Origin: a plasmid
Direction: 5' to 3' (one strand)
DNA length: 33,568 nt
Assembly (NCBI RefSeq): GCF_988242995.1
Contig: NZ_OZ547045.1
In this document: positions 27,211 to 33,568 of the stretch, in pieces
Layout of the letters: each line of letters begins with the position of its first letter
Numbering within the stretch: position 1 is the first letter of the stretch
Position numbers and translations under genes: made by a program
Notes under the pieces: generated by a model
Database searches by the model: none
What the model saw: only the letters and a program-made list of their open reading frames with translations
Told to the model about the DNA's origin: nothing

Positions 27211-30117
27211 ATGCTGAATATTACGACTATTACCCGTCAGCGAGTGGATAAGGTTGTCGATTACTACTCTGATGGCGCAGACGATTATTATGCAAAAGAC
27301 GGCAACGCGATGCAGTGGCAAGGCGCTGGCGCGGAGGAATTGGGCCTAACCGGAGAGGTTGAGCAACAACGATTTGCAAAGTTGCTCGATGGTAAAATTA
27401 CGGATGATATTTCCGTGATGCGTAAGACGGCCAACAGCGAAAGCAAAGAGCGGTTAGGTTATGACCTCACGTTTTCCGCGCCCAAAGGCGTTACGCTTCA
27501 GGCGCTGGTCGGTGGTGATAAACGTATAATCGAAGCGCATGATCGGGCCGTGGCAAAAGCTATTGAGGAAGCGGAACGGTTGGCGTTAGGCCGCTTTACC
27601 ATCAACAAAAAAACGCACGTTGAAAACACCAATAAGCTGATTGTTGCGAAATTCAGACATGAAACTTCTCGTGAGTTAGATCCTGAATTACATACCCATG
27701 CGTTTGTAATGAACCTCACCAAAACCAGTGATGGTAAATGGCGTTCACTCACTAATGACGGCATTGTTAACTCGCTTACTTTATTGGGTAACGTCTATAA
27801 ATCGGAGCTGGCAAGAGAGCTGGAGCTGGCAGGTTACAACCTGCGTTATGACCGTAACGGCACATTTGATTTAGCACACTTCACCCCGGAACAAACCGCA
27901 CACTTCAGCCAGCGCAGCCAGCAAATTGAAGATGAGTTAGCAAAAGCGGGATTGACCCGCGAAACAGCCAGCCATGAACAAAAAAATGCGGCCGCACTTA
28001 AAACCCGCAAAAGCAAAAGCGAAGTGGATCGCGATGTTCTCTATGAGGGCTGGAAAACTCGCGCTAAAGAGCTTCAGATTGATTTTGATAGTCGTGAATG
28101 GAAAGGCGCAGCCAAAGACGACATAGCGCGTAATAAGCAACCAGAGCTGGAAAAGCCGATTGAGTATCAGGCTGACAAGGTTATGACCTTTGCTATCCGT
28201 TCGCTCACCGAACGTCAGTCCGTGATCACCGAGCGGGAGCTGATGGATGTAGCAATGAAGCATGGCTATGGCCGTTTAACCGTCAATGATATACGGGCAG
28301 CGAGAGAGCGGGCCATTTCCTCCGGCAACCTCATCAAAGAAGAAACCCGATACGCAGCGGCCACAACCAATAAAAAACAACAGAACGTTGCCATGACACG
28401 CGAACAATGGGTAACGGAACTGGTGAAAGCTGGCCGTAATAAAGATGAAGCCAGAAAACTTGTAGATAAGGGCATCACAAACGGGCGATTGGTACAGCAA
28501 AAAACACGCTATACCACGCAGTTAGCCCAACAACGAGAGCGCAATATCCTGAAACTGGAGAGGGAAGGGCGCGGGAAAATCCAGGCGCCATACACCCGCG
28601 AGTTTAGCGAAGGTTGGTTAGCCAGCAGAACACTAAAACCCGAACAGTTAAAAGCGGTCATGGGGATTATCCACACCTCTAACCAGTTTATTTCTGTACA
28701 TGGGTTTGCCGGTACTGGCAAAAGTTATATGACCAAATCGGCAGCGGATTTTCTCAAAGAGCAGGGCGTACACGTCACCAGTCTTGCCCCCTATGGTAGC
28801 CAGGTAAAAGCGCTACAGGCTGAAGGGCTGGAGTCTCGTACACTCCAGTCTTTCCTCCAGGCGTCAGATAAAAAAATTGGCCCCGGATCAGTCGTTTTTA
28901 TTGACGAAGCCGGGGTAATCCCTGCCCGTCAGATGGAGGAAACTATGCGCGTGATCCGTGATGCGGGCGCACGAGCGGTATTCCTGGGCGATACAAAACA
29001 GACCAAAGCCGTTGAAGCGGGTAAACCTTTCGAGCAGCTTATCAAAGCTGGCATGGAAACAGCCTATATGAAAGATATTCAGCGCCAGAAAGACCCGGAA
29101 TTGTTGAAAGCGGCGCTGAATGCAGCGGAAGGAAAAATAAAGGCATCGCTGGCGCACGTAACCAGTATCGTTGAAGAAAAAAACCATGATCAACGCTATC
29201 GCCGGATTGTCGGGGATTATGTGGCAATGGCACCAACAGAGCGGGCAAACTCCCTGATTATCACCGGCACGAACGACAGCCGGAAAAAAATCAATGAGTA
29301 CATTCAGGCCGAGCTGGGGCTGAAAGGGCAGGGCTTGAATTACCAGCTACTGAATCGCCTTGATACCACTCAGGCCCAGCGCCAGCACAGCAAGTATTAT
29401 GAGAAAGGAGCCGTAATCATCCCGGAGCGGGATTACAGTAACGGGTTGAAGCGTGGGGGCGTTTATACCGTTCTCGATACCGGCCCCGGCAATAAACTAA
29501 CGGTAAGCGACAGCAGCGGCGACACTATCGCATTTTCACCGGCGCGATTTTCAAAGTTATCCGTGTACTCAGTAGAAAAAACGGAGCTGGCCGTGGGCGA
29601 CCAGGTAAGGATCACCCGTAACGATGCACACCTTGATTTAGCGAACGGCGACCGTTTTAAAGTTAAGGGCGTCCAGAGTGGTGAGGTATTACTGGAGAAC
29701 GAAAGAGGGCGTCTGGTAAAAATTGATGCCAGCAAGCCTATGTACTTAGGGCTGGCATACGCCTCGACCGTACATAGCGCTCAGGGGCTGACCTGCGATA
29801 AAGTTTTTATCAATATGGATACCCGATCACTCACAACGGCCAAAGATGTTTATTACGTAGCTGTCACCCGCGCTAAACACGAAGCCGTCATTTATACCGA
29901 CGATGAGAAAAAGCTGGATAAAGCGGCCAGCCGTGAAGGGTTCAAAACCGCAGCGCTTGAGCTGGAACAACTCAAACGCTACGCCAAAGAGCAGCAACAT
30001 GATTCCCGCGAAAAAGGCCGCGACAAAGCAGAGCCGACACCGGAGAAAGATAATTCCCGGCGTAAAGGCAAGGGCCATGAAAAAAATAACGACGACAGAG
30101 CATTTAACCCGCTCTAA
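27211..30117 (+). CDS. trwC: MOBF relaxase-helicase (TrwC/TraI family)
   Basis: 968 aa; N-terminal relaxase domain with tyrosine pairs (DYYSDGADDYYAKDG), HTHA motif (ELHTHAF), C-terminal helicase Walker A GFAGTGKS. Confidence 0.95.
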   Translation: MLNITTITRQRVDKVVDYYSDGADDYYAKDGNAMQWQGAGAEELGLTGEVEQQRFAKLLDGKITDDISVMRKTANSESKERLGYDLTFSAPKGVTLQALVGGDKRIIEAHDRAVAKAIEEAERLALGRFTINKKTHVENTNKLIVAKFRHETSRELDPELHTHAFVMNLTKTSDGKWRSLTNDGIVNSLTLLGNVYKSELARELELAGYNLRYDRNGTFDLAHFTPEQTAHFSQRSQQIEDELAKAGLTRETASHEQKNAAALKTRKSKSEVDRDVLYEGWKTRAKELQIDFDSREWKGAAKDDIARNKQPELEKPIEYQADKVMTFAIRSLTERQSVITERELMDVAMKHGYGRLTVNDIRAARERAISSGNLIKEETRYAAATTNKKQQNVAMTREQWVTELVKAGRNKDEARKLVDKGITNGRLVQQKTRYTTQLAQQRERNILKLEREGRGKIQAPYTREFSEGWLASRTLKPEQLKAVMGIIHTSNQFISVHGFAGTGKSYMTKSAADFLKEQGVHVTSLAPYGSQVKALQAEGLESRTLQSFLQASDKKIGPGSVVFIDEAGVIPARQMEETMRVIRDAGARAVFLGDTKQTKAVEAGKPFEQLIKAGMETAYMKDIQRQKDPELLKAALNAAEGKIKASLAHVTSIVEEKNHDQRYRRIVGDYVAMAPTERANSLIITGTNDSRKKINEYIQAELGLKGQGLNYQLLNRLDTTQAQRQHSKYYEKGAVIIPERDYSNGLKRGGVYTVLDTGPGNKLTVSDSSGDTIAFSPARFSKLSVYSVEKTELAVGDQVRITRNDAHLDLANGDRFKVKGVQSGEVLLENERGRLVKIDASKPMYLGLAYASTVHSAQGLTCDKVFINMDTRSLTTAKDVYYVAVTRAKHEAVIYTDDEKKLDKAASREGFKTAALELEQLKRYAKEQQHDSREKGRDKAEPTPEKDNSRRKGKGHEKNNDDRAFNPL

Positions 30118-30330
30118 GTGACACCCCCGGACAGTACCGGCACAACGCACCCTGGATTATTGGGAGCCGGTTTTGTCGGGGGTTTTCCTGTATTTATATT
30201 GCGTCTAACCCGTACAATCTTTTTCAGGCAGCTTGAATGACTGCCACCTTTTTTTCGTCGCCGGCAGCTGATGGCCAACGCGGGCGCCCAACCAGCTAAA
30301 TCAATAAAAACAGTATGTTAACGGAGGGGG

Positions 30331-30370
30331 AAATAAAAAAAGGGCATTCAAATAATTTGATGCCCTTTGT
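30331..30370. terminator. Hairpin terminator between convergent trwC and the nuc operon
   Basis: A-run, AGGGCATtcaaataatttgaTGCCCT, then TTTGT. Confidence 0.6.
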
Positions 30371-30419
30371 GGGAATTTGCGTACCGGAGTAGTTAGCGGC
30401 TTTTAAGTTTGTGAACAGC

Positions 30420-30687
30420 CAAGAAGGGGTCAGTTTGGAGATCGGAAATTTTTGTACGTTAAGCGCATTATTTAACCAATCTTGGTTCGTAAGGGGTTGA
30501 TTTTGCGTCAGTGGCTATCGCTTTTAAGTTGTCGCTCTTGCAGTATCGCATTTAGGTTATCCGATTAAGGTCAAACCTCTGAAAATGCCGTATAGCGCGG
30601 GAGTACACCCTATTGCTATAGGTAAGTCTGTTCAAAAAACAGGCTTACCGTACAATAATTCTCTATATCCAAACTGACCCCAAGAAG
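30420..30687. mobile_element. MITE-like non-autonomous element: 12-bp terminal inverted repeats flanked by a 7-bp direct repeat
   Basis: CAAGAAG (30420..30426) - GGGTCAGTTTGG (30427..30438) ... CCAAACTGACCC (30669..30680) - CAAGAAG (30681..30687); 254 bp between TIR ends; no ORF inside. Confidence 0.55.
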
Positions 30688-30770
30688 CAAAGCCCCACGA
30701 CCACCACACCGACAAACACACAAAGTGAAAGTGTCAAAATAGCATCATTGAATCTATCGGCTGCTGTCAT
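30657..30770 (-). CDS. Candidate 37-aa single-TM peptide, translationally coupled to the GNAT gene; 3' end formed by the MITE-like insertion
   Basis: MTAADRFNDAILTLSLCVFVGVVVVGLCFLGSVWI; GGAGG 7 nt upstream of ATG; ATG 2 nt after the GNAT stop. Confidence 0.4.
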
Positions 30771-30772
30771 GG

Positions 30773-31267
30773 TTAACCCTCCAATCGGTACGTTTTTTTA
30801 CCGCCTTGCGTTTCATTGATGATAGTAAACCCACTTCCGGCCAGCAATCCCATCATTTTAGTTGATGGAGGCAAACAGGACGCTTCCAGCCGGTGGCCGG
30901 GGGTGGCTTCAATAATGGAGTTGAGCATACTCTTACCAATGCCTTTACCCTGCTTATCGGCTGAAACAGCGAACATGCGGATCTCAAGATGAGACGCAAG
31001 GCCAGCAAAGTTATTGCGTCCGGTTAACAGCGCAAACCCTACCGGTTTACGTGTTAATTGCTCATCAAAGATAAAGAGATAATCCGCAACGGGGATATTA
31101 GCGCTGTATTTTTGAGTGACAGCTTGTAGCTCAGATTTGACCGTTTCCAGGCCATCACCATTAGCATAGAAAAATGCGCCAGATGTAATGCCCTCGCGCA
31201 CCAGATTCATGATAAAAGGAATATCTTTGTCGTTTCCTAACCGCATATCGAGCATAGCGCCCTCCAT
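30773..31267 (-). CDS. GNAT-family N-acetyltransferase
   Basis: 164 aa; acetyl-CoA-binding motif region ...VSADKQGKGIGKSML...; ATG adjacent to nuc stop. Confidence 0.75.
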   Translation of the reverse strand: MEGAMLDMRLGNDKDIPFIMNLVREGITSGAFFYANGDGLETVKSELQAVTQKYSANIPVADYLFIFDEQLTRKPVGFALLTGRNNFAGLASHLEIRMFAVSADKQGKGIGKSMLNSIIEATPGHRLEASCLPPSTKMMGLLAGSGFTIINETQGGKKTYRLEG

Positions 31268-31822
31268 TCAATAAGACGGGGTAAAATCCCGGCCCTGATC
31301 CCAGCGAGATTGCCAGTGCTTCTGATACTGCGCGGCCAGTTCCGGCGCATCCCACATCACAATAGCGTTTTCAGAGTTATATTTTTCGGCGCTGGCCGTG
31401 TAGTTAAAACTACCGGTTTCCACATGGCGACCATCAACTATGATCACTTTGTCATGCTGGATTTTGTAATTACCGTTAACCCGCAGAGGAATACCGGCAC
31501 TTGTAACCAGATTCATTGCCGCACGACTCGCCCGGCCAGTATTACCATTCTCATCAATGACGATTTTCACATCGACGCCCCGGCGTTTAGCCGCAATCAG
31601 CGCTTTCATAATATCGGGGGCGGTAAAGCTGTAGGCCATCATTCTGATGTTCTCTTTTGCCGAACCGATAACGTTGATAACAAGCTCCTGCGCCGTCCCT
31701 TCTGGCGAAAAACCTACTTGCGCCGATGCAGCATAAACAGACGGGGCCGCAGCCCCGTAAAGTACGGCGGCAACCAGTGCCGCTTTAAAGAGAAAGTTGC
31801 GCTTTTTTAAACGCTGGATCAT
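31268..31822 (-). CDS. nuc: Phospholipase-D-superfamily endonuclease (Nuc-like), secreted
   Basis: HKD motif (IQHDKVIIVDG), signal peptide; start taken at ATG 31822 (ORF track extends to 31864); overlaps virB11 3' end. Confidence 0.8.
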   Translation of the reverse strand: MIQRLKKRNFLFKAALVAAVLYGAAAPSVYAASAQVGFSPEGTAQELVINVIGSAKENIRMMAYSFTAPDIMKALIAAKRRGVDVKIVIDENGNTGRASRAAMNLVTSAGIPLRVNGNYKIQHDKVIIVDGRHVETGSFNYTASAEKYNSENAIVMWDAPELAAQYQKHWQSRWDQGRDFTPSY

Positions 31823-32816
31823 AAAGAACCTCAACAATCTGGCGGTGTTCCATGTACACAACAATATCTATCGTGGTGTACAGCGTTTTCATAATTACGT
31901 CATAATCCAGCGTCTGGCCGATGCCGGTTTGCTTGATAAGTAGTGCAATGCGGCTGAAAGTCGATTTTGCATCATCGGCATGAGTGGATGTGATCCCGCC
32001 AGGATGCCCGGTATTAAGCGAGTTAATGTAATCCCATGCCGCATCATCCCTAAGCTCTGTCATCATGATACGGTCGGGAGAAAGGCGCATACACGCTTTC
32101 AGACTGACCGCCGGGGCCAGGCGGCCCTCCTGATCGCCGTACAGCATATAAACCATTTCATGATGTAGCTCAGACCCAATTTCGTGAACGTCCTCAGAAA
32201 CCACAATACGCTCTGTATAAGGCACTTCACGAAGCAGAGAACGGGTAAACGTTGACTTACCCGAACTTGTAGACCCCGATACAACGATATTCAGCTTATT
32301 GCGTACCGCTATTTTGAAAAACGAAACAAGGTCGTCTTTATCAAGCAATTCCAGTAATTCTTGCTCGAATGGCAGTAGGGCCACTTCACCCTGAATCTTT
32401 CGTTTCCAGCCAGTAAAACGGCCCTCATCGCGGAGTTGTTCGAGAGACTTATCAACCGGTAAATGCTTACGAAACGCGATTGCTACCGTACCCTCCAATA
32501 CGGCAGGGGGTAAGCAGATAATCCCCCTTGAGCCGTCCGGCAGAAGAACGTTATTAACGGACTCTTTCGGCAGACCGTTGAAGCCACACAGCGTATCGGT
32601 TAATCGGGAGATATACTCAGCGGTGATTTTCTCATTTTCATGGAAAACACGGCCTTTCGATGTTTCACAAACAACCTGCTGATACTTGTTGATTCTCAAC
32701 TCCCACACATCGGGATCGTTCAGGTACATCAGAAGTGGTTCGAGCGTCAGCCATACGCCCTGCTCACGGCGGGGGCGCTGGCGAATATCTTCAATATTGC
32801 TGATTAAATCACTCAT
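31785..32816 (-). CDS. virB11: VirB11-family T4SS ATPase
   Basis: 343 aa; Walker [10 protein letters not shown]; overlaps virB10 stop. Confidence 0.9.
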
Positions 32817-33568
32817 TCATTTCTAACCCATAAACAGTGCTGAAATCGAGATCGCGGGCTACGTAGATGGATACAGCATCGCCCTGGGCGGCATAGAGTG
32901 TTGGCGGGATATTGATTTTCGCCCGTAATGCCTCCGTAGCAAGCTGGTCGGTACTGTTTTCCGTTGTGTTAAACGTCACATCAGAGCTGTTGTTGTTTAT
33001 CGACGCGATACCGGCTTTCATCCCATCAGTCAGCACAGAGAAAAAGATTGCATCGCCCATGCGTTCCCAAAAGTGAGAATTAACCTGGCCGGGAATGCCC
33101 GCACTACCTAAAGAGTTAGTGCCGCTGCTGTCGAGGTTAACAAGCGTCTGATCCGGGTTACGCAAGCGTGACCAGAGGACAAACACACGATTCTGGCCGT
33201 TCTGGATACCGCTATTCTGCTCACCCGTTACTACAGCCCCTTTATCAATCAGTTTCACAGTGCCATCGGCAGAGTACACATCACGGCTAACGGTACATTT
33301 AACCTGGCCCGGAACAGTGGTATCCAGTTCGGTATTTGTACCGCAAGGGATCATAGTGCCTTGCGCAATTGTCAGATTGGGATGTGGCATTACAGATGCC
33401 TGGGCGACGGCCATACGCGCCGGTTTCATACGGCTAGCCAGTGCCTGGCTGCTTGAGCTGGTTTCTGTATTGTCCTGACCGGCCCGGCGCTCCTGGTCTT
33501 TCGCTGTCGTGGCCTGTTTTTCAGGATCTACACCGTTGAAAGACACACCTAACCGGGCGCGCATTATT
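32809..33568 (-). CDS. virB10: VirB10/TrbI-family protein, C-terminal part (continues in frame from positions 2..1 across the window junction)
   Basis: VirB10 C-terminal beta-barrel-like sequence; frame continuous with the N-terminal part at 1..398. Confidence 0.85.

Follow-up and report, generated by a model that had tools for sequence, protein, structure and literature searches.

The 33,568-nt stretch of plasmid DNA analysed here (contig NZ_OZ547045.1, hereafter the window) comes from an IncN3-like conjugative plasmid (MOBF/MPF_T) and includes the 3′ end of its virB-type transfer operon; the tail of this operon quite probably consists of an ancestral nuclease gene (nuc), an added GNAT acetyltransferase gene, a variable spacer and a small hydrophobic open reading frame (ORF) which most likely is non-coding or dispensable. 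The first-pass annotation had suggested that the nuclease might be paired with a modification or immunity function. This does not agree with the distribution of the genes: Nuc mostly occurs without the GNAT, and GNAT homologues occur without Nuc. Since Nuc is commonplace and well known, the GNAT is a clade-limited add-on, and the small reading frame, tiny and unconserved, is cut here by a miniature element, a nuclease-partner system is disfavoured and the arrangement looks like an ordinary mosaic, in which the GNAT is most fittingly seen as cargo, an independent gene on the transfer-operon transcript. The features are as follows.

27211..30117, plus strand: MOBF (TrwC/TraI-type) relaxase ORF, convergent with the operon tail
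30328..30368, minus strand: hairpin (fold -14.3 kcal/mol, z -2.8) then a U-tract, UUUUUUUAUUU; likely intrinsic terminator
30396..30425, minus strand: displaced 3′ remnant of the small ORF, encoding FLAVHKLKSR (tblastn with the 38-aa allele)
30426..30681, minus strand: MITESen1, 256-bp Tn3-derived inverted-repeat miniature element (255/256 identity)
30663..30770, minus strand: chimeric small hydrophobic ORF, 35 codons, with 30682..30770 as its original 5′ part
30773..31267, minus strand: GNAT acetyltransferase, longest ORF 164 aa (Acetyltransf_1, 1.6e-6)
31268..31822, minus strand: nuc, single-HKD phospholipase-D-family endonuclease (PLDc_2, 7.9e-28)
31785..32816, minus strand: virB11/traG-type T4SS traffic ATPase (Pfam T2SSE, 9.4e-21)

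Plasmid background and the nuclease gene

Resistance and virulence plasmids are mobilised by IncN3 plasmids. The nearest database records of the plasmid studied here are typed IncN, MOBF and MPF_T, and its assignment as IncN3-like is by backbone identity and synteny: it has a MOBF relaxase, an MPF_T virB-type T4SS, and synteny and identity with the IncN3 reference pN-Cit (NC_020122), at ∼89% of nucleotides over ∼86% of 22 kb. The relaxase gene is annotated as a conjugative or MobF relaxase in relatives, with the TrwC Pfam domain in related loci, and the virB11 homologue as P-type DNA transfer ATPase VirB11. The genes virB11/traG and nuc, the GNAT gene and the small hydrophobic ORF follow one another in this order on the minus strand, tightly packed, so that the first-pass annotation was right in its gene calls and in its remark on spacing. 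The paper describing IncN3 plasmids (PMC9430514) discusses neither nuc nor the GNAT.

As had been proposed, the start of nuc overlaps virB11: its ATG is at 31822, with GAGG 6 nt upstream, and the overlap is 38 nt long, an arrangement in which nuc would be translationally coupled to virB11; its TGA stop lies at 31268-31270. The PLDc_2 domain spans residues 49-174 (Pfam, E 7.9e-28) and contains an intact HKD motif (HDKVIIVD at residue 123, a single HxK(x)4D), while residues 33-184 align with chain residues 4-155 of the crystallised nuclease (PDB 1BYR/1BYS, E 7.2e-67). The part aligned to the crystallised chain is preceded by a basic and hydrophobic, signal-like leader (approximately residues 1-31). 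Judged by these alignments, the Nuc of the window is the orthologue of pKM101 Nuc. Its pN/pS ratio is ∼0.09 in comparisons with IncN3 and with a divergent Lonsdalea plasmid. We propose that nuc would have been the ancestral last gene of the transfer operon.

The spacer, the small ORF and MITESen1

What lies between the GNAT gene and the hairpin varies between plasmids: IncN3 proper has a DUF7706 gene there, the Lonsdalea plasmid nothing, and the sub-lineage of the window an orphan 125-bp segment with a hydrophobic ORF which, where uninterrupted, has 38 or 44 codons. The hairpin itself, which separates the convergent relaxase gene from the operon tail, is conserved in pCFSAN004085, pN-Cit and the Lonsdalea plasmid, and from its sequence it likely terminates the T4SS-nuc-GNAT transcript.

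The small ORF does start where it had been placed, with an ATG at 30770, 2 nt past the GNAT stop (TAA), and it is hydrophobic, but it has 35 codons plus a stop rather than the 37 first counted, and its left edge had therefore been set 6 nt too far, at 30657. The strong GGAGG ribosome-binding site is there too (GGAGGG, 6-nt spacer); however, the motif is made of the last codons of the GNAT itself (Leu-Glu-Gly-stop), so it would be under constraint in any case, being part of the GNAT coding sequence. The ORF does not have its original 3′ end: the last 5-6 codons and the stop are supplied by MITESen1, a 256-bp TIME listed in ISfinder (PMC13367494), whose reference sequence we took from Table S2 of that paper. 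The copy in the window has Tn3-type inverted repeats (30426-30483 and 30624-30681, with GGGGTCAGTTTGGA... at both ends), is flanked by 5-bp direct repeats AAGAA (30421-30425 and 30682-30686) and contains no transposase gene, as is characteristic of a TIME; it is present in a single copy and hence is not part of a TIME-COMP composite. Sequences related to MITESen1, 80-99% identical, are present in over 2400 plasmid records; 11 close relatives lack the element. Excising the element together with one AAGAA repeat restores the sequence of the relatives, and its removal in silico yields the 38-aa ORF that relatives L005 and L018 have. Consistently, tblastn with the 38-aa allele matches the window in two pieces, 30770..30699 and 30425..30396. 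MITESen1 has transposed into the small ORF and replaced its basic C-terminus, a dated case in which the element interrupts an ORF of a Salmonella plasmid that is otherwise cryptic. We also considered that the matching IncHI2 megaplasmid fragment stopped at the MITE boundary, which proved wrong: L005 has the intact 38-aa ORF, and the match breaks only because the window carries the MITE.

It is conceivable, if rather doubtful, that the small ORF encodes a genuine coupled single-pass membrane peptide, recent in the sub-lineage and inactivated here by MITESen1. Toxin-like or T4SS-accessory peptides are examples of the role it might have had. The near-ideal Shine-Dalgarno sequence and the ATG 2 nt past the GNAT stop would suit such a peptide, as would a single hydrophobic span with a 19-residue core (Kyte-Doolittle 19-aa mean 2.8) followed by the basic tail HKLKSR. 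Moreover, the frame is open in all 11 uninterrupted relatives, the 18-nt indel between the two alleles stays in frame, and the replacements are mostly hydrophobic-for-hydrophobic; an open frame, an in-frame indel, conservative substitutions and a Shine-Dalgarno-ATG pair are what a weakly constrained membrane peptide would show. Against this, all four substitutions in 87 nt are nonsynonymous and none is synonymous, which gives, for the same pair of plasmids, a pN of 0.061 as compared to 0.0027 for the GNAT. The two alleles are only 86.7% identical, while the virB11-nuc-GNAT stretch is 98.9% and the adjacent intergenic DNA 95.1% identical, so that the ORF diverges at least as much as intergenic DNA. 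Searches beyond the sub-lineage brought no homologue of the segment, either by tblastn (2 of 72,556 plasmids matched in all) or by a blastn search for distant matches; Pfam, NCBIfam, PHROGs and PADLOC contain no matching family, and the site has no gene call in any of the related loci examined. Hydrophobic ORFs can arise from GT-rich composition alone, the plasmid tolerates truncation of this one, and Rfam gave no match at E≤1 between 30050 and 30900, hence no antisense RNA or other RNA family in the spacer. A type I toxin-antitoxin hydrophobic toxin (Hok/Ldr/TisB-like) was rejected, in the absence of family and Rfam matches, the resemblance being one of architecture only. The expectation that the small ORF would be conserved next to nuc was not borne out, since it is absent or replaced beyond the closest relatives and cut by the MITE here.

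The acetyltransferase and its neighbours

The GNAT gene had been described as starting with an ATG that abuts the nuc stop. The longest ORF does open in this way, at TGAATG, but the second ATG, at 31255 and 12 nt past the nuc stop, is probably the conserved start and gives a protein of 160 aa: it is the start used by PGAP and in most database homologues, and the abutting ATG is missing in the Lonsdalea relative, which has TGAATAGAGG. The protein passes the Acetyltransf_1 gathering score in Pfam (28.8 bits for a cut-off of 20.7) and carries an acetyl-CoA loop, QGKGIG, at residue 102 (160-aa numbering). In an alignment of 26 family members, G105, which is the first loop Gly, never varies, and the other loop positions are majority consensus only; the family also has an invariant Cys of its own, in an A-x-C-L-P motif. 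The structure predicted with AF2 (pLDDT 95.1, pTM 0.88) has the GNAT alpha/beta fold, and Foldseek found 612 PDB matches to this model at E≤1e-3, the 50 listed all being GNAT-type acetyltransferases. Its pN/pS is 0.22-0.27, and at the protein level it changes about 3-4 times as fast as nuc and virB11; on the evidence of its substitution pattern, it is a real gene under purifying selection. Its substrate would probably be a small molecule or an N-terminal amine, on which it would act independently of Nuc.

Several more specific identities were tried and rejected. A known resistance or other equivalog enzyme is not indicated: the best NCBIfam match, ArsN1a (E 0.0017), scores 18 bits for a cut-off of 170, no equivalog model in that library reaches its cut-off, and a sequence search of PDB gave no match below E 0.03. 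As to defence or phage families, PADLOC matched neither the GNAT nor the small ORFs, and PHROGs gave only ‘acetyltransferase’. The GNAT-toxin type II toxin-antitoxin pairs (TacT/AtaT/KacT type), in which a tRNA-acetylating toxin has a small RHH/DUF1778 antitoxin gene as its neighbour, do not fit either, because the upstream gene is nuc, the downstream ORFs match no antitoxin family, and three different downstream states of the GNAT are found; the Pfam, NCBIfam and PADLOC matches include no toxin family. Finally, a two-gene GNAT-DUF7706 module was dismissed, DUF7706 being present in 2776 plasmids and GNAT homologues of any kind in 491, and the GNAT being found without DUF7706 as well.

Nuc homologues are present in at least 5000 plasmids, and the GNAT adjoins nuc only in the IncN3-like clade, i.e. 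in about 100 of them; the 102 plasmids with a GNAT at least 60% identical agree with the 103 with a Nuc at least 90% identical. The neighbourhoods of both genes were inspected in exemplars. IncN1 R46, IncN2 pTR3 and the two MPF_I plasmids examined have nuc with no adjacent GNAT; conversely, GNAT homologues with 27-60% identity are found by themselves on other plasmids and mobile elements, next to HTH, resolvase, ProQ, Rep or RdgC genes and never beside a PLD gene in the loci examined. With 54 representatives among 1.8 billion proteins at E≤1e-3, this is a small orphan family of plasmids and mobile-element-like regions of Enterobacterales. We suppose that the GNAT gene would have joined behind nuc in the IncN3-like clade only, and that it would be expressed by read-through from the transfer operon, with its own Shine-Dalgarno sequence, 12 nt after the nuc stop. 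Co-transcription with the T4SS operon would be in keeping with the layout; the minus strand ahead of the GNAT has no sigma-70-like promoter match, and promoter-like sites are as frequent as shuffling predicts.

A single module of Nuc, GNAT and membrane peptide, in which the GNAT would modify or neutralise Nuc or its substrate and the peptide would serve for anchoring or export, is hard to credit. The tight one-strand gene junctions do recommend it, and so does the fact that nuc and the GNAT have stayed neighbours in about 100 IncN3-like plasmids as well as in the divergent Lonsdalea plasmid. Because this adjacency has been kept for long (∼0.4-0.5 synonymous differences per site between pN-Cit and the Lonsdalea plasmid), some selective benefit of the position can be envisaged. 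However, Nuc is without the GNAT in nearly all of the at least 5000 plasmids, pKM101-type IncN1 included, and GNAT homologues do without Nuc; the presence of a signal-like leader on Nuc and of none on the GNAT points to separate compartments, Nuc being presumably periplasmic and the acetyl-CoA-dependent GNAT cytoplasmic; neither IncN3 proper nor the Lonsdalea plasmid has the peptide, which in the window is truncated; shortened GNAT variants are frequent in the database; and in one relative a Tn3-family transposase gene overlaps the 3′ end of the GNAT. Somewhat less remote, yet still improbable, is a role for the GNAT in conjugation-linked competition or establishment (fertility inhibition, anti-defence by acetylation), that of a conjugation-timed effector which would acetylate a host or rival-plasmid target and replace FipA at the junction that fipA occupies in IncN1. 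Anti-defence, fertility inhibition and establishment are examples of what such effectors may do. Its place at the end of the transfer operon, because of which the GNAT is probably co-expressed with it, would suit this role, as would the occurrence of the family on plasmids and mobile elements and the fact that IncN1 has FipA, a known inhibitor of IncP fertility (PMC5696584), at the equivalent junction while the window has none (FipA finds no significant tblastn match in it). But the GNAT has no sequence relation to FipA and no PADLOC match, its fold matches are generic small-molecule or N-terminal GNATs, and its position may reflect an insertion hot-spot, as the fipA region has been described (PMC5027574), given the Tn3-family elements here and in relatives. 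The mosaic tail with the GNAT as independent cargo thus remains our preferred reading; beyond annotation its significance is slight, apart from flagging an unstudied, narrowly distributed family of plasmid-borne GNATs which in IncN3-like plasmids would be tied to the transfer operon.

Comparison with known systems

The closest known arrangement is that of pN-Cit, where virB11, nuc and the GNAT have the same order, are likewise convergent with a MOBF relaxase and share the terminator hairpin with the window; the GNATs are 81-82% and the Nuc proteins 93% identical. Homology ends inside the final three codons of the GNAT gene, after which the backbone of pN-Cit has a 64-aa DUF7706 gene and the sub-lineage of the window the unrelated orphan segment. 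As for the fold, PA4866/YncA, RimI/RimJ, SpeG, ArsN and phosphinothricin acetyltransferase share it with the window GNAT (Foldseek probability 1.0, TM 0.6-0.75), as well as the acetyl-CoA loop (QGKGIG in the window GNAT), yet they are only 13-20% identical. MITESen1 shares with its reference 255 of 256 positions, Tn3-type inverted repeats, a 5-bp target duplication and the lack of a transposase, and differs in its setting, an IncN3-like backbone and the inside of the small ORF.

The order of virB11 homologue and nuc, which the first-pass annotation had noted for pKM101-type plasmids, is indeed found in IncN1 R46: in both plasmids nuc is the next gene after the virB11/traG homologue, in the terminal part of the T4SS operon. 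The window Nuc and that of pKM101/R46 are ∼67% identical, align over the whole mature domain, and have in common the single HxK(x)4D motif and, probably, a signal-like leader. In contrast, the nuc-virB11 overlap is 38 nt in the window and 1 nt in R46, and in the window, unlike in pKM101/R46, the operon continues past nuc. At the junction of nuc and the relaxase gene (traI), where the window has the GNAT, R46 has a DUF6710 gene (1.4e-44), which we take to be fipA. Its product belongs to a protein family unrelated to the GNAT and is encoded on the opposite strand; the GNAT cannot be equated with FipA, as the R46 gene lies on the relaxase strand and no GNAT is found beside R46 nuc. The nuc-traI junction of IncN-type plasmids thus appears as a landing pad for unrelated small genes (GNAT, DUF7706, FipA) and Tn3-family elements, and operon-like tight spacing is no proof of a common function.

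Gene order at the end of the transfer operon

All the relevant genes of the tail lie on the minus strand. The features, in window coordinates, are:

27211..30117, plus strand: MOBF relaxase gene, convergent with the tail
30339-30368, minus strand: hairpin followed by a U-tract (-14.3 kcal/mol, z -2.8), between the relaxase gene and the tail
30396-30425: displaced 3' coding remnant of the small ORF
30426..30681, minus strand: MITESen1, single copy, 255/256 identical to the reference sequence (Table S2 of PMC13367494)
30663-30665 (stop) to 30770 (ATG), minus strand: small hydrophobic ORF, 35 codons, its ATG 2 nt after the GNAT TAA and preceded by GGAGGG with a 6-nt spacer
30773..31267, minus strand: GNAT acetyltransferase gene, longest ORF (164 aa), opened by an ATG abutting the nuc stop (TGAATG)
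31268-31270 (TGA) to 31822 (ATG), minus strand: nuc, with GAGG 6 nt 5' of the start and a 38-nt overlap with virB11
31785..32816, minus strand: virB11/traG homologue

This is largely the anatomy drawn in the first-pass annotation, which missed the miniature element MITESen1. The overlap of the nuc start with virB11 is confirmed, and the small ORF does start where it was placed, is hydrophobic and follows a strong ribosome-binding motif, but it has 35 codons and not 37. That GGAGGG is made of the final codons of GNAT itself (Leu-Glu-Gly-stop). The ATG abutting the nuc stop opens the longest GNAT frame, but it is probably not the conserved start: in the Lonsdalea plasmid it is lost (TGAATAGAGG...) and GNAT begins at the second ATG, the start (160 aa) also used by PGAP and most database homologues, so that comparison of these sequences puts the conserved start of the window probably at 31255, after a 12-nt gap. 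Pfam assigns Nuc to PLDc_2 (7.9e-28) and GNAT to Acetyltransf_1 (1.6e-6, over its cut-off); the small ORF has no Pfam match.

The public records nearest to the window have the types IncN, MOBF and MPF_T. Closest of all are pCFSAN004085, with 98.9% identity, and, inside an IncHI2 megaplasmid, a fragment that is 100% identical; the backbone is about 88-89% identical to the IncN3 reference pN-Cit and some 100 similar plasmids. The window opens in virB9 (1-1282) and closes in virB10 (32809-33568) of the same T4SS operon and one relative contig measures 33,580 bp; it is therefore probably a complete, permuted circular plasmid of about 33.6 kb, opened within that operon. The megaplasmid fragment (pBD-50-Eh_2, IncHI2A, 336 kb; L005 3783-8611) adjoins a resolvase gene and comprises a truncated virB8, virB9-11, nuc, GNAT and an intact 38-codon ORF; it is a relic of earlier co-integration or transposition. 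The hairpin and U-tract are kept in every relative examined and are likely the operon terminator.

A miniature element in the small hydrophobic ORF

The MITESen1 copy has Tn3-type inverted repeats and lies between 5-bp AAGAA direct repeats (30421-30425 and 30682-30686), a target duplication. Taking out the element and one repeat restores a 38-codon ORF exactly as in pBD-50-Eh_2 and a second related locus (L018); the 35-codon ORF of the window is thus a chimera, in which the basic C-terminus AVHKLKSR has been exchanged for GSVWI. Since the insertion is absent from 11 of 11 close relatives, it arose recently and in this plasmid only. More than 2400 plasmid records contain MITESen1-related sequence, with identities of 80-99%. 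Within the element's end, a sigma-70-like match (TTCAAA-17-AATAAT, plus strand, 30631-30659) faces outward, on the strand opposite to nuc, GNAT and the small ORF; this is no more than agreement with a consensus, and the promoter count of the region is at shuffle expectation.

The nuc-relaxase junction, judging from related sequences, looks like a recurrent target of Tn3-family elements. In the Lonsdalea plasmid a MITESen1-like end abuts the relaxase gene (L006 5740-5880), the ORF downstream of nuc in the IncN2 plasmid pTR3 ends in a translated MITESen1-like repeat (L012 4575-4979), and a Tn3-family tnpA overlaps the GNAT 3' end in a close relative (L017 2898-3908). An insertion hot-spot within fipA has been described in IncN1 (PMC5027574).

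The 11 uninterrupted relatives carry the small ORF in three forms:

Form 1: 38 codons, C-terminus ...CFLAVHKLKSR
Form 2: 38 codons, L27I
Form 3: 44 codons, C-terminus ...CVLAVHKLTRPADTKSR

Beyond this sub-lineage none was found, with tblastn matches in 2 of 72,556 plasmids; blastn-distant detected no homologues of the segment, the terminator part alone matching IncN3. Its position in pN-Cit is taken by an unrelated 64-aa DUF7706 gene (1.5e-27; L002 5782-5976), starting 11 nt after the GNAT stop with its own SD (GAGGTGG) and encoding an acidic product. The window lacks this gene, of which 2776 plasmids carry homologues; many of those plasmids are large (about 190-450 kb) or measure about 60-90 kb. 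In the Lonsdalea plasmid the terminator directly follows GNAT. Homology between the lineages breaks off inside the last three codons of GNAT.

One may ask whether the ORF encodes a real but dispensable membrane peptide. It is open in every relative carrying it, the indel between its alleles is in frame, substitutions are mostly hydrophobic swaps, and one clear hydrophobic span is followed by a basic tail. Over the first 29 codons, window and pCFSAN004085 differ by four nonsynonymous and no synonymous changes, with a pN of 0.061 against 0.0027 for GNAT; the alleles are 86.7% identical, compared with 98.9% for virB11-nuc-GNAT and 95.1% for adjacent intergenic DNA, and no gene is called at the site in any related locus examined. 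We consider such a peptide rather unlikely. The ORF is lineage-restricted, fast-diverging and, in the window, truncated.

The acetyltransferase and its relation to Nuc

GNAT is an annotated gene, added to the transfer operon in one clade. Its product has the acetyl-CoA loop QGKGIG, an A-x-C-L-P motif whose Cys (C127) is invariant across the 26-member family alignment, and a conserved C-terminal G-G-K-(K/R)-T. The family counts 54 representatives (E<=1e-3) among 1.8 billion proteins, and those found so far come from Enterobacterales such as Yersinia, Rahnella, Erwinia, Citrobacter and Klebsiella, where they reside on plasmids or in mobile-element-like regions. There is no near NCBIfam equivalog or PDB sequence relative. 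The AlphaFold model, of high confidence (pLDDT 95.1), matches hundreds of GNAT structures, but at only 13-20% identity and across many substrate classes, so that no substrate can be assigned. Against pN-Cit and the Lonsdalea quercina plasmid, pN/pS is 0.22-0.27, from which the gene is judged functional and under constraint; for Nuc and VirB11 it is ~0.09, and the GNAT protein rate is 3-4 times theirs. Truncated variants are common in the protein database, many IncN3-type entries having 91-132 aa (hits P0010-P0019), which suggests that plasmid maintenance does not need GNAT. One pair of pieces shares the same longest-contig figure (35,043 bp), and the gene of that plasmid may be frameshifted or split.

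The first-pass annotation suggested, as an example to follow up, that GNAT and the peptide form a modification or immunity function paired with the nuclease. By tblastn, Nuc homologues occur in at least 5000 plasmids, 103 of them at >=90% identity, and GNAT at >=60% identity in 102; the nuc-GNAT pair thus marks one clade. Around nuc, GNAT is kept in that clade but missing in IncN1 R46, IncN2 pTR3, a Pseudomonas MPF_I plasmid and an IncI-type plasmid, where nuc adjoins the transfer ATPase gene. GNAT homologues of 27-60% identity stand by themselves, on other plasmids and in mobile-element-like regions; they lie next to genes for an HTH regulator, a resolvase, a ProQ-like protein, Rep or RdgC, or to transposon genes, and, in the loci inspected, never beside a PLD gene. 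Nuc has a basic and hydrophobic leader of ~30 residues, missing from the crystallised chain, and GNAT has none; we infer that Nuc would be exported and the acetyl-CoA-dependent GNAT cytoplasmic. This spread, the lone homologues, the truncations and the leader difference make the proposed partnership unlikely.

A better reading is that GNAT would be a cargo gene captured at the end of the transfer operon and, as we infer, expressed by read-through from it; the promoter scan of the tail's minus strand gave no promoter-like site, its count equalling shuffle expectation. That this orphan plasmid GNAT family acts in step with conjugation, for instance in anti-defence or fertility inhibition, seems to us improbable.

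Nuc and its place after virB11 are already known. It carries the catalytic motif HDKVIIVD and aligns from residue 33 on with the crystallised pKM101-type endonuclease (1BYR/1BYS, E 7.2e-67). In R46 the PLD gene likewise lies directly behind the virB11 homologue, a gene order that bears out the likeness to pKM101-type plasmids noted earlier.
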